Assembly (NCBI GenBank): GCA_035573955.1
Contig: DATLZO010000019.1
Span: forward strand, 161-64,160
Source: Minisyncoccota bacterium
Lineage (GTDB): Bacteria > Patescibacteriota > Minisyncoccia > UBA6257 > GWB1-50-10
Length of the DNA: 64,000 nucleotides
Direction: 5' to 3'
Shown here: positions 28,913 to 43,481 of the stretch, in pieces
Layout: every line of letters begins with the position of its first letter
How positions within the stretch are numbered: the stretch's first letter is position 1
Made by a program: the position numbers and the translations under genes
The notes under the pieces: model-generated
Databases searched by the model: none
Told to the model about the DNA's origin: nothing
The model's input: only the letters and a program-made list of their open reading frames with translations

Positions 28913-29570
28913 TTAAAGTCCGACGGATTTCATCCTCGAGCGCCACTTGATAATTTCAAATTGGGCAAGAAGATGAACTTTTTTACAAGTTCAGGGTCTT
29001 CTAGTTAAAGTAATCGAGCAGAGATAAATTACTCAACAGAGTAAGTTACTCAAATTAAGGGTGGATGGTGGATGCCTAGACACCGAACGGCGAAGAAGGA
29101 CGTGGCGTAGCTGCGATAAGTCTCGGGGAGGTGCGTAGCAACCTTTGATCCGGGAATGTCCGAATGGGGAAACCTGGTAGAGCAAACCTCTATCACTTCA
29201 ACGCAAGTTGAAGAGCGTACCCAGGGAACTGAAACATCTAAGTACCTGGAGGAGCAAAGAACAATAGTTTATTCCGCAAGTAGCGGCGAGCGAAAACGGA
29301 AGAGCCTAAACTGAGCTTTCGACGCAAGTCGGACGCTCAGGGTTGAAAGAGTGAGAACGTCTTTCGAGCTTGAAAGCTTTGAGCTTGAAAGGAGAAGTTA
29401 CAAATCCATTGGTTAGTTGAATCCGCTGGAAAGCGGAGCCATAGTGCGTGATAGCCGCGTAAACGAAAACCAGTGGACTTCTCAGTTTTTATTTCTTAAG
29501 TACCGCGAGGCCAACTAACCTTGTGGGAATCCGGGAGTACTGTCTCCTAAGGCTAAATACGTTCGGCGAT

Positions 29571-29607
<37 letters not shown>

Positions 29608-29672
29608 CAGCCCGGTTAGGGCGGTGAAATAGTACCTGAAACCATCCACTTACAAGGAACAGGAGCTTTATC

Positions 29673-29836
29673 GCTATCGCTCAAAGTTCCTAAATTCTAA
29701 GCACGAAATCCAAAATTCTAAATAAATTCTAAACTCCAATGTTCAAGATTCAAAACGTTTTGAACATTTGGATTTTAGTGATTGGAGTTTGTTTAGGATT
29801 TAGAAATTAGAAATTAGGATTTGGAAACTTCGAGCG
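29673..29836 (+). other. AT-rich hairpin insertion (IVS-like) at the 23S helix-25 site
   Basis: ~160 nt imperfect palindrome of TTCTAAA/TTTAGAA-type repeats between GGAGC and the conserved GAGTGACTGTGTGCC. Confidence 0.6.
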
Positions 29837-30526
29837 GTAGCGAGGAGTGACTGTGTGCCTATTGAAGAATGAGCCAACGAGTTTACGTACGCTGCAAAGT
29901 CTAAGCCCCCTCGGGGGTGGAGGCGCAGCGAAAGCGAGTCTTAATAGGGCGAATTTAATCAGTAACACAAGCCTTTTAAGAGGATTGTGTTACCGGTTAA
30001 TAAGCAACGTGCGTAAGACCCGAAACCAGACGAGCTTGCCCTGGCCAGGATGAACTCCCGCGAAAGCGGGAGGGAGGTCCGCACCGGTGAGTCGTGCAAC
30101 GCTCTCGGATGAGCTGGGGTAAGGAGTGAAAAGCTAATCGAGTTTGGTAATAGCTGGTTCTCTCCGAAATAGTTTTCGGACTAGCCTCATATGTTTCCTT
30201 TTGGAGGTAGAGCACTGGAAGATGCGAACAGGGCGCAAGCTCGTCGCATCTATCAAACTCCGAATGCCAAAGGGTAAAAGTATGGGAGTCAGACTGTGGG
30301 GGCTAAGCTCCATGGTCGCGAGGGGAAGAGCCCAGATCGCCGTCTAAGGTCCCAAAGTTCGTACTAAGTGTCAAAGGTAGTTCGTGTCCACAAACAGATA
30401 GGAGGTTGGCTTAGAGGTAGCCATCCTTTAAAGAGTGTGTAACAACTCACTATTCGAGGACGCGGGCGCCAAAAATTTACCGGGGCTCAAGTACGACACC
30501 GAAGACGCGGGCCGTTGCGGAGCAAC

Positions 30527-30645
30527 GGAAATCCTAAATCCAAAATCCTAATTTCTAAACAAATCCCAAATCTCAAAATCCAAAACTTTTTTGAGTTTGG
30601 AATATTTGAATTTGTTTAGGATTTAGAGATTAGAATTTAGAGTTT
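30527..30645 (+). other. AT-rich hairpin insertion (IVS-like) at the 23S helix-45 site, homologous to the helix-25 insertion
   Basis: flanked by GGAAA/TTTCC; shares TTTGTTTAGGATTTAGA(A/G)ATTAGAA with the 29673-29836 insertion. Confidence 0.6.
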
Positions 30646-32048
30646 CCGTCGCTTCGCGACGGCGGTAGGAGAGCATTCCTTGTGCTGCGAAGTCCGATCC
30701 GTGAGGGCGGATGGAGCGCAAGGAAGAGAGAATGTTGGCATGAGTAATCAGCAAAGCGCGTGAAAAACGCGCTCCCCGCAAATCCAAGGTTTCCTCCGCA
30801 ACGCAAATCGACGGAGGGTTAGGCGGCCCTAAGGCGATGGCGAAAGCCGCAGCCGAAGGAGTGCCGGTTAATATTCCGGCCCACCATGCATTTTCGATGG
30901 GGTGACGGAACGCAGTAAGTTCGGTGCCTTAATGGTTTGGCATCCTTGACCGAGAGTGAATTCCAGGGAAATCCGGAATTCTGTCTTCAATGACGAACTT
31001 CAGGGTAGAGGCGAGGCGAGGTTTTTACCTTGCCAAGCGGACCGAGCGCGTTTCCTAGAAAAACCTCTAAGGTTAAAGTGCATAGTTCCGTACCGTAAAC
31101 CGCCACTGGTGGATGAGGCGAGTAGCCTAAGGGGAACGAGTGATTTCTCGCTAAGGAACTCGGCAAAAAAGCTAGGCGTAACTTCGGGATAAGCCTTGCC
31201 TGCCGCAAGGCAGGCCGCAGCTAAAGTTTCTCTGGCGACTGTTTACCAAAAACACAGCTCCCTGCGAACTCGCAAGAGGATGTATAGGGGGTGACACCTG
31301 ACCGATGCGAGAAGGTTAACGGCGGGGACGTTGCGCAGCAATGTGCAAGGTTCACTGCCCGAAGCCCTCGTCAATGTCAGCGGTAACTATAACCGTTCTA
31401 AGGTAGCGCAATTCCTTTCCGGGTAAGTTCCGGAGCGCACGAAAGGTGTAACGACTGGAGAACTGTCTCAGCGAGAAGCTCGATGAAAATGCGATACCCG
31501 TGAAGACGCGGGTTACCGGCAGCAAGACGAAAAGACCCCGGAAGCTTTACTGCAGTTTGGTATTGTTATTAACGTTTGGATGCGTAGCGTAGTGGTGAGC
31601 CTTCGAAGCCGGGATTTCGGTTCCGGTGGAGGCGACAATGAAACAGCCATCTTTCAAGTGTTAATATCTAACCTCTAGGGCCAAAAACCTAGAGGGACAG
31701 TGCCTGACGGGCAGTTTAAATGGGGCATTTTCCTCCTAAAAAGTAACGGAGGAGTCTATTAAGGTCAGCTTGGCGCGGATGGAAATCGCGCCGGACGTGC
31801 AAAGGCATAAGCTGGCTTGACTGCAAGGCTGACAAGCCGCGCAGGCGCGAAAGCGGAGCTTAGCGACCCGACCATTCTTTATAGAAAGATGGGAGACAAC
31901 GGCTAAAAGTTACTCCGGGGATAACAGGCTAGTCTGGTCCGAGAGTCCCTATCGACGACCAGGTTCGGCACCTCGATGTCGGCTCATCACATCCCGGGGC
32001 TGGAGAAGGTCCCAAGGGTTTGGCTGTTCGCCAATTAAAGTGATACGT

Positions 32049-32089
<41 letters not shown>

Positions 32090-32127
32090 TGTTGTCGGCG
32101 TTAATGCTTGAGGGAAGTCGTCCCTAG

Positions 32128-32892
32128 TAAACGACAAATTGCTACTTCACGAAGTAATTCGTGATGACAAAGCGGCTAATAACGGTGGAATCTTAATATT
32201 TGATTATCACCATCGGTCTTGGTGATAATTTACTTGAGGACCAAGAGATGTTAAGATAATACCGTGGGAAGTCGGTCTAACATTCACTATGCGTACATTG
32301 CGGGTTTCCTCGATGGTGACGGAAGCCTCATGTTGCAGGTGAAGAAACGCAAAGAAGGGAAATTGAAACGGCGTTTCATGTTCACGATTTGTTTTTATTA
32401 AGACAGTCGTCATGAACGTCCGCTTTTCTGGATTCGTAGAGTGCTCGGCATTGGTTATATTTCCCGTCGGAATGACGGTATAACCGAGCTGCGCATCAAC
32501 GGTTACAAACAAGCTGCGAGAATATTAAGGGAACTACTGCCGTTTCTAAAATTCAAGAAGCGGCAGGCGGAGGCAATATACAGCGCGGCAAAGCTTTTAG
32601 CGCAAAAGGCGCGAAAAAGATTAACGCGGCAGGAATTGCAGCGGCTTGTGAACTGGATCCTTGTAGTTCAAAAAGAAAACTACGTTACCAGAAAAAAGAA
32701 AACGAAAGCTGATTTCTTGAAGATGTTAGATTTGACCCCGTAACGACTTGTTCCGGATGGCAAGTCCGGACGGAGTTGGAAAATGCGAAGCTATCATTTT
32801 TCAGCTAATACGCCGCCTCCAAGCCCCGGTTTTGAGAAAACTGGAGCTGGATGAAGATATAGTCTACGCACGTAGTGATACGTGGTTACGTG
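32128..32892 (+). mobile_element. group I intron in 23S domain VI, splitting CCUAGU^ACGAGAGGACC at the sarcin-ricin loop
   Basis: exon sequences rejoin to the conserved SRL; intron ends in G; GATATAGTC P7-like core; contains the LAGLIDADG ORF. Confidence 0.7.
32264..32743 (+). pseudogene. intron-encoded single-motif LAGLIDADG homing endonuclease (I-CreI-like) with an in-frame TAA at 32399-32401
   Basis: YIAGFLDGDGS motif; GIGYI...LPFLKFKKRQAEA aligns to I-CreI; the stop falls where I-CreI has Gln (CAA to TAA). Confidence 0.65.
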
Positions 32893-32971
32893 ACGAGAGG
32901 ACCGGGATGAACGAACCTCTGGTCTACGAGCTCTACCACCAGGTGGAATGCTCGGTAGCTATGTTCGGACG

Positions 32972-33005
<34 letters not shown>

Positions 33006-33049
33006 CTCCCAAGATTAGGCGGAGCGTCCTCTGTACAAATTCCGCGATT

Positions 33050-33290
33050 ATTGGCCAGAAAGATTTTTTATATCTGGCTAGGCGCGAGGAGTGATGTGTA
33101 GTCGAAGACTACATGAGCGACGAGCAACAACGCCAGAAGAAAAAAGATTCTGGCCCGTAGGGAAGCTCAAAATTAAGCGATCTCTGCGTTGCTCCTCCTC
33201 AATGTGGTTTTCGACCACACTTTCGTCGTCGCATCTTGAGCTCATCATAATTTTGAGCTTCCAATACATCGTGGCATTTGTGCAGAGGGC
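33050..33290 (+). other. ~230-nt expansion insertion near the 23S 3' end (helix ~98 region)
   Basis: between CATCTAAGCGCGAAGCCTCTCCCAAGATTAGG and GTGGAAGACTACCACGTTGATAGGCC, where E. coli has ~50 nt; several local hairpins. Confidence 0.45.
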
Positions 33291-33459
33291 GCCGGATTCG
33301 TGGAAGACTACCACGTTGATAGGCCATAGGTGTAAGCGCGGCAACGCGTTTAGCCGAGTGGTACTAATAAATCCGAATTCTCGATATCTTTAGCTTGAGG
33401 ACCCCGGACTTGTCAAAAAGCTCATCTTTAGTCCACTGATCGAGCACCAAGGTTTTTGT

Positions 33460-33574
33460 TTGCTGGTGTTTCACTCGCACGTGCTCCACCTCTTCCCATT
33501 CCGAACAGAGAAGTGAAAGCGTGCGAGCCTGATGATACTGCGCTTCGCGCGTGGGACAGTAGGGTATGCCAGCA
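33460..33574 (+). rRNA. 5S rRNA
   Basis: CCATTCCGAACAGAGAAGTGAAAGCGTGC...GGGACAGTAGGGTATGCCAGCA; ~80 nt after the 23S. Confidence 0.85.
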
Positions 33575-33611
33575 TACAAAAGCCCTGGTGCTTTTTGTTT
33601 GGAGCGGTTCC

Positions 33612-38138: not shown

Positions 38139-38789
38139 ATGATGTTTGAAGCGATTTTACTCGCTTGGGCTGTAGCGGCAAGCTTTGCTTCCGTGGTTTT
38201 CTTCGCACAATGGCGGCGGAGCAAACGGAGATTTAAGCACGTCACCATGAATGATGAACTCACTGGTCTTTTGAACCGCCACGGTTTTTGGGATCAGGTG
38301 GAGCGCTTCATTAAAGTGACGGTTTCCGCCAAGGTCGGCGCGCAGCGAGCGTCTTTCGTCGTGAAAGATTTCTCGCTTATTGTGTTTGACATTGACCGTT
38401 TCAAAGAGCTTAACGACATGTTCGGTCATAGGTGTGGGGACGCTGTTCTTCGGAGAGTCGCCGAGACGGTGACATCCGCCATCAGGGAAGTGGATTTGGC
38501 TTGCCGCTGGGGCGGTGAGGAGATAGTAGTCGGTCTCGTCGGCGCTGGGCAGCAGAAAGCACTGGAGATAGCCGAGCGTGTGAGGGAGACAGTTGAAAAG
38601 TCTCCAATCATGTGGGATAGCGGCGATATTGTTCGGTTCACTGTCTCCGGCGGTGTCTCGAGCGTGAACGGCGCCAAAAACTTCGATGAGCTTCTGGAAA
38701 TGGCCGATAAAGCCCTCTATCTCGCGAAGGCCGGTGGCCGCAACCGCATTGTCGCTTACGAATCGTCGAGCACTAAGCCCGGAAGATGA
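38139..38789 (+). CDS. GGDEF-domain protein (diguanylate cyclase-like; GGEEI variant) with N-terminal TM helix
   Basis: LTGLLNRHGF, FDIDRFKELND, RWGGEEIVV. Confidence 0.75.
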   Translation: MMFEAILLAWAVAASFASVVFFAQWRRSKRRFKHVTMNDELTGLLNRHGFWDQVERFIKVTVSAKVGAQRASFVVKDFSLIVFDIDRFKELNDMFGHRCGDAVLRRVAETVTSAIREVDLACRWGGEEIVVGLVGAGQQKALEIAERVRETVEKSPIMWDSGDIVRFTVSGGVSSVNGAKNFDELLEMADKALYLAKAGGRNRIVAYESSSTKPGR

Positions 38790-38833
38790 TTTCCGGGCTT
38801 GCTTTTTACCAAAAAATGCGCTTATATTGTTTT

Positions 38834-39193
38834 CGGTAAGTCAAGCGATAGCTCCGATTCCGCAAGGTTTTGGAGAGGAAAGTCCGGACACCCTCCCGGC
38901 CGTGCGCCGGGATAAAAATGTAGCGGATAACGTCCGTCGTCCGCAAGGATAGAGGTGCGAGCAGTGACGTCCCGAGCCGAAAGGCGAGGGAGGACCTAAT
39001 CTCAAGCTAATCGGTCCAATCCCGCGATAGAGATAGAAAAGCGGGAGTGAAACGGCTAAATCCTTACAGGGTGCAAGGCTGTGCCCCGGGAGACCGGGGA
39101 ATGCCGCTCGAGTCCGGGAGTAATCCCGGTCCTAGATGAATTATCGCTAAGGTGTATAATCACCCGAAACAGAATCCGGCTTACGACTTACCG
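38834..39193 (+). ncRNA. rnpB: RNase P RNA (bacterial type)
   Basis: GAGGAAAGTCCGGAC (P4 5' strand) and ACAGAATCCGGCTTAC (P4 3' strand); P1 pairing CGGTAAGTC/GACTTACCG; terminator follows. Confidence 0.85.
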
Positions 39194-39195
39194 CA

Positions 39196-39227
39196 GAAAC
39201 CCGCCGCAAGGCGGGTTTCTGTTATTT
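39196..39227 (+). terminator. rho-independent terminator of rnpB
   Basis: GAAACCCGCC-GCAA-GGCGGGTTTC then TGTTATTT. Confidence 0.6.
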
Positions 39228-39269
39228 ATAATAGAAGTATCAAAGGCCGGTTCAATAAAATTTTCCAAT

Positions 39270-39581
39270 ATGGCTAAGTGGGTCATAAAAAGAGGAGGTA
39301 AAAAAGAACCGTTTCGTCTTTCCAAGGTTTCCGGTGCGGTGAGAGCCGCCTGTAGCGATGTGCGCCTCCCTGCGAAGCGGACGAAGACTGTGGTGAACAA
39401 AGTGACTCGAGATGTCATAAAGTTCGCCGCAAAGCGGAAAATAACTGTAAGAACATCCGATCTGCGCAAGATTTCTCTGAAGGCGCTCGGCGAGATAGAA
39501 CCAAAAGCGGCGAGAGCTTGGAGAAAATACGATGCCGCAAGGCGCGCAAAACGCGCGAAAGCGAAAAGAAGGAGAACTTAA
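39270..39581 (+). CDS. stand-alone ATP-cone domain protein with a basic C-terminal tail
   Basis: KWVIKRGGKKEPFRLSKVSGAVRAA resembles the NrdR/RNR ATP-cone start (VIKRDG..EPF); ORF-track model trimmed from 39081 because it overlaps rnpB. Confidence 0.55.
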   Translation: MAKWVIKRGGKKEPFRLSKVSGAVRAACSDVRLPAKRTKTVVNKVTRDVIKFAAKRKITVRTSDLRKISLKALGEIEPKAARAWRKYDAARRAKRAKAKRRRT

Positions 39582-39714: not shown

Positions 39715-40191
39715 ATGATGATTATCACGCCGCCCGATTTTGTCACAGATCGCAACGCCGCCGTTCTTTTCCTTGGCGGTCCGATACGGGAGACGCCCGA
39801 TTGGCGTGCGGAAGCGATCCGCATCATCTCAAAGAATAACGGCAGGGTTTATGTCGCTTCGCCTCAGCGGCCGGGCGGCATTTACCCAGATTTTGAGGGG
39901 AGTGAATGCGACGTTCAGACGAGGTGGGAAGTGCATCATCTTTTCCGCGCCTTGCGAAAAGGCGCTGTGCTCTTCTGGTTCCCGAAGAAGCAGCCGTATC
40001 TCCGCAATTCCGGACTCGAGCTTGGAGCATCGCTTGTCTCGGCCGGGAATGTGGTGGTCGGCATCGAAACGGGTTTCCCGGAAGAGTATCTTCGCGCTTT
40101 CATCCGTGAGAAGTCTCCGGATGTAAAGATCTGCAATGATTTCGAGGAAACGTGCCTTACGGCACTCGCACTAGCGGAAGCGGCTCTCTGA
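39715..40191 (+). CDS. hypothetical protein, GC-rich (possible nucleoside 2-deoxyribosyltransferase-like Rossmann fold)
   Basis: AVLFLGGPIRETPDW weakly resembles NDT-like YLAGPI motifs; GC ~56% with ORFs open on both strands. Confidence 0.45.
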   Translation: MMIITPPDFVTDRNAAVLFLGGPIRETPDWRAEAIRIISKNNGRVYVASPQRPGGIYPDFEGSECDVQTRWEVHHLFRALRKGAVLFWFPKKQPYLRNSGLELGASLVSAGNVVVGIETGFPEEYLRAFIREKSPDVKICNDFEETCLTALALAEAAL

Positions 40192-40219
40192 GCCGCTTCT
40201 TCATTTTTCAGTTATAATT

Positions 40220-40840
40220 TTGAAGATGCTAAAAAAGCCGAAAATCTTTAACATCCCGGAATTCGAGGTATTTAAAAAGTTGAACACGCCGGCAAAAGTC
40301 CAGGATTTTATTGATAAGATTCCCGTAAATTTTTCCATAACCTGCCGGTCGCCGCTCTCGGTTTTACGGAAGAACCGGGCTTATTGTATCGAAGCGGCCT
40401 TTCTCGCGGCTGCCATTTTCTGGTACCACGGCCGGAGACCGCTCGTTTTTGTTCTTCAGACCGCAAAAAGAGATTTTGATCACGTCCTTGCGCTTTTTCG
40501 GGAAAACGGCCGCTGGGGGGCAATTTCCAAAACCAATCATCCGGTTTTACGTTATCGCGAGCCGGTTTATAAAAGCATTAGGGAACTCGCGATGTCATAT
40601 TTTCACGAGTATTTCATGGACGACGGAAAGAAGACGATGCGCGGTTATTCCGAACCGATTGATTTGCGGAAATTCGGCACGGATTGGATAGTCTCAAAAG
40701 AGGATATCTGGCGTCTGGACAGCGCGCTGGCAAAGGCCAAGTACCACAAAATTTTAGGGAGAAAACAAATTCCGCTCTTGCGGAATGCGGACAAAATTGA
40801 GATTAAGGCCACCAAGCTGGTCCAATGGAAGCGGACTTGA
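40220..40840 (+). CDS. hypothetical protein (206 aa), possible Cys/His papain-like fold
   Basis: AYCIEAAFLAAAIFWYHG...DFDHV; no confident family. Confidence 0.5.
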   Translation: MKMLKKPKIFNIPEFEVFKKLNTPAKVQDFIDKIPVNFSITCRSPLSVLRKNRAYCIEAAFLAAAIFWYHGRRPLVFVLQTAKRDFDHVLALFRENGRWGAISKTNHPVLRYREPVYKSIRELAMSYFHEYFMDDGKKTMRGYSEPIDLRKFGTDWIVSKEDIWRLDSALAKAKYHKILGRKQIPLLRNADKIEIKATKLVQWKRT

Positions 40841-40904
40841 CCGCGTCTGGAATGAAGTTCTAGAATTAAATCCGAGGCTGATTTCTTGCCTCGTGCATAA
40901 TGCA

Positions 40905-41160
40905 CACACAATGGGTGGGAGGGGAGCCACGCGACAACGCAAGACCCACCAGTTCTGTGCGAGTGACTGGCGGCCAAGTGGGCCGGAATAATCCATAAGC
41001 CGGCCGGCAAAAATCTCGCACCACGTCTAGCTAGCGTACTGCCGAGTTTTTTCGAGCCGAAACGCGGATAGCGGAGCTTTCCGATTAGCTCCAAGTCGCG
41101 GCTATCCCGCCCTTCCCACCCCTAGCACCAAAGCCGCACCACACCAAGTGCGGCTTTGTC
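40905..41160 (+). ncRNA. candidate structured GC-rich ncRNA (class unknown) ending in a terminator
   Basis: long-range helix GGGTGGGAGGGG (40913-40924) pairs with CCCTTCCCACCCC (41109-41122); internal GGCCGG...CCGGCC hairpins; terminator AAAGCCGCAC...GTGCGGCTTT + T-rich at 41130-41167. Confidence 0.25.
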
Positions 41161-41173
41161 ATTTGTTATCTTA

Positions 41174-41201
41174 TTGACAAAAAATACCCAAATGTTACAT
41201 T
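41174..41201 (+). promoter_or_regulatory. putative promoter TTGACA-16-TACATT for csp
   Basis: read directly. Confidence 0.45.
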
Positions 41202-41245
41202 TAAGTGGAGAAATGTGGTCGTATTTCTTTAAAGCAATCTAAGCC

Positions 41246-41446
41246 ATGACAGGGACAATCAAAACCCTTACGGATAGAGGATATGGATTCATCGCTCGCG
41301 AAGGCGAAACGAAGGATCTTTTCTTCCACTCCAAAGAGCTTGTTGGCGCGACTTTTGAGGAATTGAAGGTCGGCGACACCGTTACTTTCGAGGTTGTGGA
41401 TACCGACAAGGGTCCCGCCGCCACGAAGGTTTCGCTCGCGAAGTAA
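41246..41446 (+). CDS. cspA: cold-shock protein (CspA family)
   Basis: GTIKTLTDRGYGFIAREGETKDLFFHSKEL cold-shock domain RNP motifs. Confidence 0.9.
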   Translation: MTGTIKTLTDRGYGFIAREGETKDLFFHSKELVGATFEELKVGDTVTFEVVDTDKGPAATKVSLAK

Positions 41447-41463
41447 CATCGTCAACGAACCAA

Positions 41464-41490
41464 AAACCCGCCGGAAAAGGCGGGTTTTTG
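41464..41490 (+). terminator. rho-independent terminator
   Basis: AAACCCGCC-GGAAAA-GGCGGGTTT followed by TTG. Confidence 0.6.
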
Positions 41491-41612
41491 TGGTTTTCCA
41501 TATTCACAACCATTGTCATCCAAATGGATGCGGTGAGAGCGACGACGATAAATGGAACGATATTTTCGTCAAATATAAATTTCGTAATGGCTATTTGTTA
41601 TAATTAAAATTA

Positions 41613-42545
41613 ATGAATAACAAGATAACTGCCAAGGATTTTTTCTTCCATATTGCCGTTATCGTTCTTTTGTACGTCGGCACAGTTGCGCTTCTCAATA
41701 TTTTGTTCCGCGTTATCAACGTCGCTTTCCCGCAGGTTACGGATAGCGGTTATTACGACTCGAATTCCATCAGTCTTCCGGTCGCGACGCTCATCGTGGT
41801 TTTTCCGCTTTTTCTTTTTATCACCAATCTGCTCCGCAAGGGATATTCGGAGGAACCAAGTCGCAAGGAATATCCGGTGAGAAAGTGGCTAATCTATATC
41901 ACGCTTTTCATAGCCGGGGCGGTTCTTGCCGGCGACCTCGTTACGCTTATTTATTTCTTCCTCGACGGTCGGGAGCTCACAACTGGTTTTATTTTGAAGA
42001 TACTTTCAGTGTTTGTCGTCGCCGGTTCGATTTTTGGTTATTATGTAGATGATTTGAAAGATCGTCTTTCGGGGTCGCGTCGGAACTTCTGGCGAGTGTG
42101 GGCTACGGTTCTGGTTCTCGGTTCGATAATCGCGGGTTTTGGTGTGCTTGGGTCGCCCCGAAGTCAGCGCATGTTCCGCTACGATTCGCAGAAGATCTCG
42201 GATCTCCAAAATATCCAATGGCAGGTTGTAAACTACTATCAGCAAAAAGGAGTTTTACCCGATTCTCTTTTGGATTTGCAAGATCCGATTTCCGGCTTCA
42301 CGTTGCCGAAAGACCCCCAAACAAGAGGGGATTACGGCTATAGGAAAACCGGTACACTTTCTTTCGAACTCTGCGCCAATTTCAACAAGCCTGCGCAGGC
42401 AAATAACAACCCTTCCCGGATAGTTTATCCTGACGAAGTGGGCAAATTTGTTGGAGACAGCTGGCAGCACGAAGCCGGGCGTGAGTGCTTCTCACGCACC
42501 ATTGATCCAGATCTTTATCCAATAAGACCAAAGACGCAGTTTTAA
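41613..42545 (+). CDS. hypothetical integral membrane protein (4-5 N-terminal TM helices plus soluble C-terminal domain)
   Basis: hydrophobic segments over the first ~180 aa; no family recognised. Confidence 0.6.
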   Translation: MNNKITAKDFFFHIAVIVLLYVGTVALLNILFRVINVAFPQVTDSGYYDSNSISLPVATLIVVFPLFLFITNLLRKGYSEEPSRKEYPVRKWLIYITLFIAGAVLAGDLVTLIYFFLDGRELTTGFILKILSVFVVAGSIFGYYVDDLKDRLSGSRRNFWRVWATVLVLGSIIAGFGVLGSPRSQRMFRYDSQKISDLQNIQWQVVNYYQQKGVLPDSLLDLQDPISGFTLPKDPQTRGDYGYRKTGTLSFELCANFNKPAQANNNPSRIVYPDEVGKFVGDSWQHEAGRECFSRTIDPDLYPIRPKTQF

Positions 42546-42621
42546 TCTGTTTTGTAAAGGAAATTTTTTCTGTCATTGAAAGTGCATGCCCCCGCGTGCT
42601 AAACCGGCACCGTTGTTTCCT

Positions 42622-42669
42622 TAATAAGTATCATTAATAAGAATAAGTATCATTAATAAGTATCATTAA
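42622..42669. repeat. tandem repeat TAATAAGTATCAT x3 (middle copy carries an AAGAAT insertion)
   Basis: read directly. Confidence 0.6.
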
Positions 42670-42681
42670 ATGCAAATAAAT

Positions 42682-42717
42682 ATCCCAATTCATAAGCTAT
42701 AGCTTATGAATTGGGAT
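42682..42717. terminator. perfect 36-bp palindrome ATCCCAATTCATAAGCTA/TAGCTTATGAATTGGGAT between convergent genes; likely bidirectional terminator
   Basis: the sequence equals its reverse complement; flanked by A/T runs. Confidence 0.5.
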
Positions 42718-42719
42718 AA

Positions 42720-43481
42720 TTAGAGATAACCGATTTTTTTAAGCCATTCTATATTTTCCCATTCCCAAAGTTTCTTCGCGCCGAGGAATGCATCGAAGTC
42801 TTCTTGCCAGTAGGGGAATTCTTTGAGTTCTATCCTGCCCTCGAGCGGACCCCATTCGTGTTGGCAGACTTGCATGAAAGCGTTGCCCCACTGTGTTTTT
42901 ATCTTATCCCGACCGCCCTTAGAGCGGAGTATGGCGCTGCAATGGACGCAGAAACGGCTCTGGTCGATGCGCAAAATCCACCTCGTCTCCAGATTTTTCA
43001 CTTGTTCCTTCATTGCCGCGAGATAGGCCGAGGTCTGGAGATTATAGTCGCGGTAAATTTCCTGCGATGTTTTAATGTCCAAAATGCCGAGTTTGCCGTC
43101 GATGAGTGCGATTGCGTCCAATGTCCCGGCATAGCGGTGCTCGTAGTTTACGAGACGGTGCTCAACGTAGTTCGGGTCTACCTGGATGTTGCGGTCGACT
43201 AAAAATTCCAAGAATGCCTTAATAGAAGGGCGGATGCGCTCGGGTATTTCCGGTTTCTCACCAAGGAGGATTTTTTCTGCCGCTTCGTGGATCTGCGTAC
43301 CTTCGGTAGCAGAGTTCATTTTAATGCGTTCGCCGGCCGCAAAGTTTTCGACATTTGCGTAGAAGCGGTAGAGGGCCGGTTTGGACTTGATTTCCACGAT
43401 TTTCGTCACCCGCGGGTACCAAAATCCGTCTACTTCGTAGCCGCAGAGTGATTTGAAATGGTTTTCGTCGGAGTAGTACAT
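42720..43481 (-). CDS. PD-(D/E)XK nuclease, Cas4/RecB-like family (one N-terminal plus three C-terminal Cys)
   Basis: GTLDAIALIDGKLGILDIKTS (D...D.K), Cys13 plus CVHC...C arrangement typical of Cas4/AddB Fe-S nucleases; no CRISPR array in the window. Confidence 0.65.
   Translation of the reverse strand: MYYSDENHFKSLCGYEVDGFWYPRVTKIVEIKSKPALYRFYANVENFAAGERIKMNSATEGTQIHEAAEKILLGEKPEIPERIRPSIKAFLEFLVDRNIQVDPNYVEHRLVNYEHRYAGTLDAIALIDGKLGILDIKTSQEIYRDYNLQTSAYLAAMKEQVKNLETRWILRIDQSRFCVHCSAILRSKGGRDKIKTQWGNAFMQVCQHEWGPLEGRIELKEFPYWQEDFDAFLGAKKLWEWENIEWLKKIGYL

Follow-up and report, generated by a model that had tools for sequence, protein, structure and literature searches.

A probable structured RNA gene beside the CPR-C4 protease gene of a Minisyncoccota bacterium

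A structured non-coding RNA is probably encoded next to the CPR-C4 cysteine protease gene in a 64,000-nt stretch of contig DATLZO010000019.1 (GenBank assembly GCA_035573955.1, positions 161 to 64,160 of the forward strand) from a Minisyncoccota bacterium, a member of the Candidate Phyla Radiation (CPR, or Patescibacteria). The whole stretch is called the window here, and all positions are counted from its first nucleotide. With moderate confidence, the segment from about 40873 to 41165 on the + strand was interpreted as a stand-alone gene for this RNA, which would belong to a small family of a Paceibacterota clade (Jorgensenbacteria-like CPR) that is absent from Rfam. The genomes of CPR bacteria are tiny and almost wholly uncultivated, and their non-coding RNAs are little known. 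Since the RNA is strongly folded, has a promoter and a terminator, and matches none of the 4227 families of Rfam 15, it represents a candidate RNA family for CPR that metatranscriptomics and structure probing can address directly.

Anatomy of the probable window RNA

A sigma-70-like promoter was located at 40837-40866 (+), with the -35 hexamer TTGACC (40837-42), an 18-nt spacer and the -10 hexamer TAGAAT (40861-66). It agreed with the consensus at 10 of 12 positions in the consensus scan, and its -35 hexamer overlaps the TGA stop codon of the CPR-C4 gene (40838-40). The 5' leader extends over 40867-40912 (+), with a putative transcription start near 40873, and contains a hairpin with the arms CCGAGGC and GCCTCG (40872-78 / 40888-93, +) and the palindrome GTGCATAATGCAC (40893-40905).

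The closing helix P1 pairs the 5' strand GGGUGGGAGGGG (DNA GGGTGGGAGGGG, 40913-40924, +) with the 3' strand CCCUUCCCACCC (DNA CCCTTCCCACCC, 41110-41121, +) through 12 base pairs, 11 Watson-Crick and one G-U. Its core, UGGGAGGGG (40916-24) with CCCUUCCCA, is the part equivalent to the helix of the related RNAs, and three extra outer pairs are present besides. The length of P1 alone was mildly unusual, as an uninterrupted helix of at least 12 bp appeared in 12 of 300 dinucleotide shuffles (4%).

Inside P1, the block CGCGAC (PKa, 40930-40935, +) lies 5 nt past the 5' strand and can form six Watson-Crick pairs with GUCGCG (PKb, 41095-41100), as one side of a candidate pseudoknot (PK). It is followed by the hairpin CCAGU...ACUGG (40949-40970, +), which is present in the minimum-energy fold and is lineage-specific, not conserved in the relatives. 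The hairpin H3 (40981-41005, +; stem 40981-86 / 41000-05) reads GGCCGG-AAUAAUCCAUAAG-CCGGCC and is followed by GGCA. A variable central region with little sequence conservation (41006-41063, +) then ends in an A-rich linker (GAAAC). The hairpin H4 (41064-41109, +) adjoins the 3' strand of P1 and pairs GGAUAGC (41066-72) with GCUAUCC (41101-07), with two possible outer pairs; at the DNA level, these arms are GCGGATAGC and GCTATCCCGC (41064-72 / 41101-10). It carries an inserted sub-hairpin, GGAGCU/AGCUCC (41073-78 / 41087-92, +), and the loop motif AAGUCGCG (41093-41100, +), which includes PKb.

By sequence, terminator scan and fold, the segment 41122-41165 (+) consists of the short linker CUAGCACC, a terminator and a U-rich tail. 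The intrinsic terminator AAAGCCGCAC-CACACCAA-GUGCGGCUUU (41130-57, +) showed 11 pairs in the terminator scan; its DNA arms AAAGCCGCAC and GTGCGGCTTT lie at 41130-39 and 41148-57, with the T-rich TGTCATTTG next to them. The promoter of the cold-shock protein gene csp (TTGACA-16-TACATT with an upstream TG, 41174-41201, +) was found by the consensus scan beyond the terminator.

The G+C content (GC) of 40913-41121 is 0.61 compared to 0.48 for the window. Over 40905-41165 it is 0.59, a value reached by 1% of 261-nt windows. The RNA of the + strand folds at -110 kcal/mol (z = -5.2), and none of 200 shuffles was equally stable; the fold of the - strand is weaker (z = -4.0). The G-U pairs in P1, PK, H3 and H4 are valid on the + strand only, which together with the promoter and the terminator points to an RNA on the + strand.

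The open reading frames (ORFs) in the element are short and overlapping, and their frames are not conserved across species. When six-frame peptides of the six RNAs described below were compared, frame-specific peptide conservation was not detected. Likeness was confined to the places where the nucleotides are conserved and occurred in all frames and on both strands, as is usual in non-coding sequence. In five of the six RNAs, an apparent start codon (AUG, GUG or UUG) stands 3 nt 5' of AGUGGG, with stops in or near the H3 loop. This small ORF was rejected: its 'UG' belongs to P1, the start-like triplet arising because U-A and G-C pairs extend that helix; the peptides of 10-26 aa are unrelated, their likeness is not frame-specific, and L090 has no start codon.

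Several of these features had been pointed out in a sequence-only reading of the window and were recovered here: the 12-bp closing helix, the GGCCGG/CCGGCC hairpin and the long hairpin at the 3' side, the terminator ahead of the csp promoter, the csp promoter itself and the 13-nt palindrome. The 3' arm of the helix, given there as 41109-41122, is one base shorter at each end, and the promoter at 40837-40866 was missing from that reading. Its description of a helix-closed, terminator-ended non-coding RNA without a translated ORF is supported by our analysis. Among the identities it had proposed, a novel element is the one that survived. No match was found at 40900-41170 with the curated Rfam thresholds, and cmscan with permissive filters returned nothing at E <= 10 for 40700-41350. 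At the loci of the related RNAs, no family match was obtained at E <= 10 either.

From this anatomy, a primary transcript of about 290 nt with a core of about 210 nt (40913-41121) would be expected. The promoter over the CPR-C4 stop codon would drive the RNA, and its own intrinsic terminator would end it; the same terminator would also stop read-through from the protease gene, which would give the layout of a small RNA (sRNA) of the 3' untranslated region (UTR) type with an internal promoter. The conserved core would consist of P1 and H4, which abuts the P1 3' strand, and H3 and a variable number of lineage-specific hairpins would hang between these elements. The 3' part of the H4 loop may pair with the block 5-7 nt past the P1 5' strand, either as an H-type pseudoknot or as a competing helix. 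The conformer with P1 and H4 is the minimum-energy fold in five of the six RNAs. In the window RNA, a nested alternative, in which P1 is extended by AGCC/GGCU and GCGAC/GUCGC, lies within 1 kcal/mol of it. PK may form together with H4, as an H-type pseudoknot with a continuous PKb-H4-P1 3' strand, or may compete with the top of H4. Such a pseudoknot or alternative pairing would make the RNA more than a simple hairpin sRNA.

Related RNAs and compensatory changes

Searches with the window segment (blastn and nhmmer) against the first loci and 80 genome-contig loci returned only an identical contig, L001, from a Logan assembly, so relatives were sought through the neighbouring CPR-C4 gene. Related contigs keep the gene order PGK, DHHA1, RNase H, RNase P RNA, ATP-cone and CPR-C4 and differ in what lies past CPR-C4. 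Five distinct relatives, with CPR-C4 proteins 74-79% identical to that of the window, carry an analogous unit of promoter, RNA and terminator beside CPR-C4. The RNA lies directly 3' of CPR-C4 in L002 (4655-4860), L090 (795-965; L101 is identical), L091 (1120-1320) and L100 (1318-1492). In L089 (1515-1790), an opposite-strand ORF separates it from CPR-C4, and the RNA has its own TTGACT-16-TATAAT promoter. L100 came from a metagenome scan with a terminator-anchored pattern, which gave 12 loci with L100 and L101 as the only genuine members. The same pattern found nothing in viral contigs, blastn gave no match to phages, and a second protein search with the L100 CPR-C4 added no new close relatives. 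A TTGAC -35 element over the CPR-C4 stop codon is present in L002, L090, L091 and L100, with a -10 element of TATAAT, TAGAAT or TATTCT at 16-17 nt.

When 507 kb of CPR DNA were searched with a covariance model (CM) built from L100 alone (R1), L089, L090, L002 and L091 were recovered with E-values from 1e-12 to 4e-7, and no other sequence reached E < 0.1. Therefore, these five RNAs form a real family. The window copy is the most divergent of the six, and its membership is drawn from synteny, architecture and one blastn match. When 535 kb of loci were searched with the window RNA by sensitive blastn, the top match was the L091 RNA (70 nt, 71% identity, E = 1e-3). This match runs from the H4 loop to the terminator, at the equivalent position, and points to homology of the window H4 with GAGACGGC-AAAUCGCG-GCUGUCUC of L091. 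Global alignments of the window copy with members scored above shuffles (z = 2.6-5.2). The GGGGAGCCACRCG block and the leader of the window match L100 (leader alignment TAGAAT.AA.TCC..GG.TG..TTTC..GCC..TAATGCAC), and interior blocks match L089. The window also shows the family traits in the expected order: position, promoter over the stop codon, P1, PK, H3, H4 and terminator. On these comparisons, the window copy is probably homologous to the five-RNA family. Even without homology, the window element would keep its own predicted promoter, fold and terminator.

Across the family, the leader is 17-46 nt long, and those of the window and L100 are alike. The P1 consensus is UGAGUGGGG/CCCCACUCA, which is fully Watson-Crick in the relatives. 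The window differs from it at three pairs, two of them changed on both sides and one from G-C to G-U. PKa stands 5-7 nt after the P1 5' strand and is complementary to the 3' end of the H4 loop (PKb, motif YCGYG). The PKa/PKb pair is CGCGAC/GUCGCG in the window, CACGAC/GUCGUG in L090, CACGG/CCGUG in L100, GCGAU/AUCGC in L091 and ACGG/CCGU in L089; L002 offers only the wobble-rich option UGUGG/CUGUG. The best duplex between the H4 loop and the interior sits 6-12 nt after P1 in four of the six RNAs (window, L090, L091 and L100). H3 is a GGCCGG-like stem with an AU-rich loop, followed by GRCA, as in GGCCUGG-UUAAUAA-CCUGGCC-GACA of L090 and GGUUGGG-CUAAUAA-CCCAGCC-GACA of L002. An A-rich linker precedes H4, and a gap of 0-3 nt (14 nt in L002) separates H4 from the P1 3' strand. 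All relatives have a short (U)AGCRC linker and a GGCCG...CGGCCUU-type terminator. H3 of L100 (1340-1358) reads GCCGG-AUUAGAUAC-CCGGC, and its loop matches the helix-24 (790) loop of Escherichia coli 16S ribosomal RNA (rRNA). This loop occurs in no other member, and the idea of 16S rRNA mimicry was set aside as a probable coincidence.

Covariation was counted on an ungapped alignment of hand-excerpted stem segments of the six RNAs. Full-length MAFFT alignments were unstable, and an R1-based alignment, which was incorrect for L002, L090 and L091, was not used. Standard pairs filled 95.7% of cells, and this value dropped to 36-48% when the partners were slid by 1-3 columns. Both sides changed in 17 of 35 pairs (three in P1, three in PK, one in H3, six in H4 and four in the terminator), and none of 500 shuffles reached the observed values of pairing and covariation. 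The strongest pattern was that of H4, in which all six compared pairs change on both sides and 100% of cells are paired; the fractions were 3/6 for PK and 4/8 for the terminator, and the covariation of H3 was modest. These compensatory changes support all five predicted helices.

The window and L091 are the deepest and most divergent CPR-C4 branches, and both have the RNA. The common ancestor of the group thus probably had it already, with later loss or relocation in one subclade. Its syntenic position beside CPR-C4 in six lineages indicates that the RNA is native rather than foreign.

Competing explanations and known RNAs

Several observations weigh against a conserved stand-alone RNA gene in the window. 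R1 and a second CM made from the L091 core (R2) missed the window copy even with filters off, and nhmmer profiles from the other five RNAs gave it a best E-value of 0.18, although the best match in the window, at 41129-64, was at the correct place. The comparison comprises only six distinct sequences. Between P1 and H4, the interior measures 79-144 nt, contains lineage-specific hairpins, and is poorly conserved in both sequence and length. The segments that flank PKb in the H4 loops of L090 and L091 are short, which is tight for simultaneous formation of H4 and PK. In addition, L003, L007 and L010, which form a CPR-C4 subclade with 86-89% mutual identity, have no RNA at the site, and neither do L012/L105 and L104; the absence from the subclade implies that the RNA is dispensable or moved. 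Finally, the hand excerption of stems biases the percentage of paired cells upward, and the compensatory changes at fixed positions and the position of the pseudoknot partner are more informative than that percentage.

There is a small chance that the element is a structured 3' UTR or terminator of the CPR-C4 mRNA, which would stabilise that mRNA or insulate the next gene and would neither yield an RNA of its own nor act in trans. CPR-C4 has no terminator before 41130, and the element is always directly 3' of CPR-C4 except in L089. However, the promoter-like site over the stop codon is conserved in five lineages, the L089 RNA has its own promoter and is cut off from CPR-C4 by an opposite-strand gene, and a plain terminator would not need P1, H4 and PK helices with compensatory changes. 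A cis-regulatory 5' leader of csp (attenuator, riboswitch or thermosensor) that controls read-through of the 41130-57 terminator is unlikely. Such a leader would fit the terminator about 8 nt past the closing helix, the csp gene 80 nt further on the same strand and the two nearly isoenergetic conformers, and a small ORF and a DEAD-box helicase gene (annotated in L091, assumed in L100), another RNA-chaperone function, come after the RNA on its strand in L091 and L100. On the other hand, csp has its own promoter between the terminator and the start codon, and the RNA of L002 and L089 is followed by a convergent gene, with no gene after it on the + strand. The csp gene and the adjoining DUF5671 gene also occupy a variable slot before the conserved 253-aa and Mur-ligase genes. 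Neither an overlap of aptamer and terminator nor an antiterminator was obvious by eye, with no systematic search made. Because the content of the slot varies among relatives, csp is not a conserved partner, and the RNA is probably not a csp leader. The sequence-only reading had placed the element upstream of the csp promoter, which holds for its position; a functional link does not follow, as the RNAs of the relatives precede other genes or none on their strand. A riboswitch was further rejected for lack of an Rfam aptamer match and of a conserved downstream gene on the same strand.

A highly divergent housekeeping RNA missed by covariance models, as 6S RNA, the RNA of the signal recognition particle (SRP, 4.5S) or transfer-messenger RNA (tmRNA), is very improbable, and these identities, two of which (6S and SRP) the sequence-only reading had offered, were not sustained. 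They would agree with the strong promoter and terminator, with ends that form a closing helix, with the 23S, 5S and RNase P RNA genes in the neighbourhood, and with the UAAUAA loops of H3 in L002 and L090, which resemble the end of a tmRNA tag. Against them, all six sequences lack an Rfam match at E <= 10, closely related genomes have no RNA at the site, and the smallest core of the family is 121 nt. Like 6S RNA (RF00013), the element falls in the size range, has its own promoter and terminator, and pairs its ends in a closing stem; it differs by its multi-branched structure, with three to five hairpins inside P1 and loop-to-strand pairing in place of a rod with a central bubble. The domain IV motif of SRP RNA (a GNAR tetraloop and GGAAGCAGC-like loops) was absent from the six sequences by inspection. 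tRNA-like RNAs, including tmRNA and the Y RNA YrlA, share the end-to-end helix and the contact between a stretch behind the 5' strand and the loop of the hairpin ahead of the 3' strand, and two members have a central hairpin with a 7-nt loop. Yet G3-U70, a T-loop (in H4) and a conserved CCA after P1 are missing, the helix lengths are not tRNA-like, an rsr or smpB context was not seen, and ARAGORN detected neither tmRNA nor tRNA at the window element or the related loci. With these hallmarks missing, the tmRNA idea raised by the H3 loops was rejected.

It is equally improbable that the element is a relic of a small mobile element, comparable to a miniature inverted-repeat transposable element with P1 as its terminal inverted repeats, or a functionless GC-rich spacer. 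In the DNA, the arms of the helix, TGAGTGGGG/CCCCACTCA, form perfect inverted repeats, and a variable gene slot lies downstream. Nevertheless, the 64-kb window has a single copy, and no further copy was found in about 535 kb of related loci; the six lineages have it at an orthologous position, and viral or phage matches were not found. The G-U pairs fit only the RNA of the + strand, and the internal helices and the terminator co-vary.

For the stand-alone RNA, a stable trans-acting structural role, as a protein-binding scaffold or component of a ribonucleoprotein (RNP), is tentatively favoured over a base-pairing regulator or a cis leader. The conservation in helices, the lack of a conserved single-stranded seed and the lack of a conserved downstream gene suggest this role. 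It is also suggested by the RNAduplex comparison of the RNA with the CPR-C4 start region, in which no consistent complementarity appeared (z = -2.2 to +1.5). A more far-reaching proposal, to which we assign a low probability, is that the stack of P1, H4 and pseudoknot, around which the peripheral hairpins vary freely, forms the core of a new class of functional RNA in the CPR lineage: a small ribozyme, a ligand-sensing or conformational switch, or a tRNA-mimicking RNP component. Such an RNA would go beyond a common regulatory sRNA. The two isoenergetic conformers of the window RNA would fit the switch option.

The closest layout is found among the 3'-UTR-type sRNAs of enterobacteria with an internal promoter, such as DapZ and MicL, which are Hfq-dependent, act by base pairing and have a conserved single-stranded seed. 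As in these sRNAs, the promoter lies in or over the end of the upstream coding sequence, and the terminator, here read from sequence, is shared with the upstream mRNA. In contrast, the window RNA is far more structured, has no recognisable conserved seed, and belongs to a CPR lineage. Orphan structured RNA motifs from comparative genomics (Breaker/Weinberg type, e.g., raiA) provide the other comparison. The element resembles them as a lineage-restricted, GC-rich intergenic element of an AT-richer genome with covarying helices and a possible pseudoknot. It differs in matching no catalogued motif (Rfam 15) and in comprising six sequences from one narrow clade. This narrow distribution, with absence from the sister subclade, limits the present significance of the RNA, which would rise if the pseudoknotted core were catalytic, ligand-responsive or part of a CPR-specific RNP.

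Neighbouring genes and other observations

The element is flanked by genes for an ATP-cone protein, a nucleoside 2-deoxyribosyltransferase-like protein (39715-40191) and a 206-aa protein (40220-40840), with csp (41246-41446) and a DUF5671 membrane protein gene further downstream. The sequence of the 206-aa protein is identical to that of an NCBI entry from a metagenome-assembled genome of Candidatus Paceibacterota. Pfam, NCBIfam and PADLOC searches gave no match for the 206-aa protein, and PADLOC (defence systems) and NCBIfam added no annotation to the neighbour genes of the element. The AlphaFold model of the 206-aa protein (predicted local distance difference test score of 92) was matched by Foldseek to the CPR-C4 crystal structures 7OB6 and 7PJO (E = 1e-23, identity 48-49%, template modelling score 0.9). 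On this structural match, the product of 40220-40840 (+) is assigned as the CPR-C4 cysteine protease, which is conserved in CPR. A CPR-C4 protein search returned more than 7,900 homologues, with CPR metagenomes as the main source. The paper that describes CPR-C4 (PMC9108980) does not mention a neighbouring RNA. Reports of a non-coding RNA beside CPR-C4 or of CPR-specific sRNAs were not found in the literature.

The block 39715-41165 had been described as GC-rich and possibly foreign. The first part is only partly correct, as GC is 0.44-0.45 in 40050-40500. As to the second part, only the 39715-40191 gene (+; PF15891, GC 0.56-0.58) is missing at this position from L002, L003, L007, L089 and L100 and is therefore a lineage-specific insertion; CPR-C4, like the RNA, is native. 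On the other side of the RNA, csp and the DUF5671 gene fill the variable slot (41174-43481) before the conserved 253-aa gene (42720-43481, -) and the Mur ligase gene. In the relatives, this slot is empty or contains small ORFs or a block of genes that includes a DEAD-box-type helicase. No integrase was seen there, and the slot may be a hot spot of insertion beside the RNA gene.

Other sequences were observed at the related loci. In the sister subclade (L003, 4628-5101; also L004-L006 and L009), the stop-overlapping promoter TTGACT-18-TATAAT is kept and, in place of the RNA, would drive a GC-rich ORF of 111 aa preceded by a leader hairpin, GAGAUGAGCG...CGCUCAUCUUG. Two strong GC-rich hairpins flanked by GGGAACGC...GCGUUCCC lie about 70 nt past CPR-C4 in Jorgensenbacteria GW2011_GWA1_48_11 (L012, 3180-3305; L105, 840-968). 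These hairpins, which overlap a putative ORF of the minus strand at its end, may serve as bidirectional terminators or belong to a structured element of another kind. In L090, about three tandem copies of a unit of about 31 nt, GGGGAAACGTTTTTATCTGGGTTGGGGAGG, stand at 1110-1210, about 150 nt past the RNA terminator; this repeat has no spacers and is not CRISPR-array-like.

With the curated Rfam thresholds, the window contains 23S and 5S rRNA, four tRNAs and RNase P RNA. The RNase P RNA (38833-39198, +) is of class A and scored 112.9 bits, slightly above the gathering score of 100. A program-listed ORF (39081-39581) overlaps its 3' end, and the ATP-cone gene probably starts near 39273. Directly 5' of the RNase P RNA gene lies a gene for a GGDEF diguanylate cyclase (38139-38789, +); a cyclic di-GMP riboswitch was not detected in the window. 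No 16S gene is present in the window, and the layout of the 23S and 5S genes is typical of the rRNA oddities of CPR. The 5S gene lies about 1.35 kb 3' of the 23S gene, with the short ORFs 32207-32512 (-) and 33091-33393 (+) between. The 23S rRNA match (29048-33575 region) spans 3068 nt compared to a model of 2925 positions and may carry an insertion.

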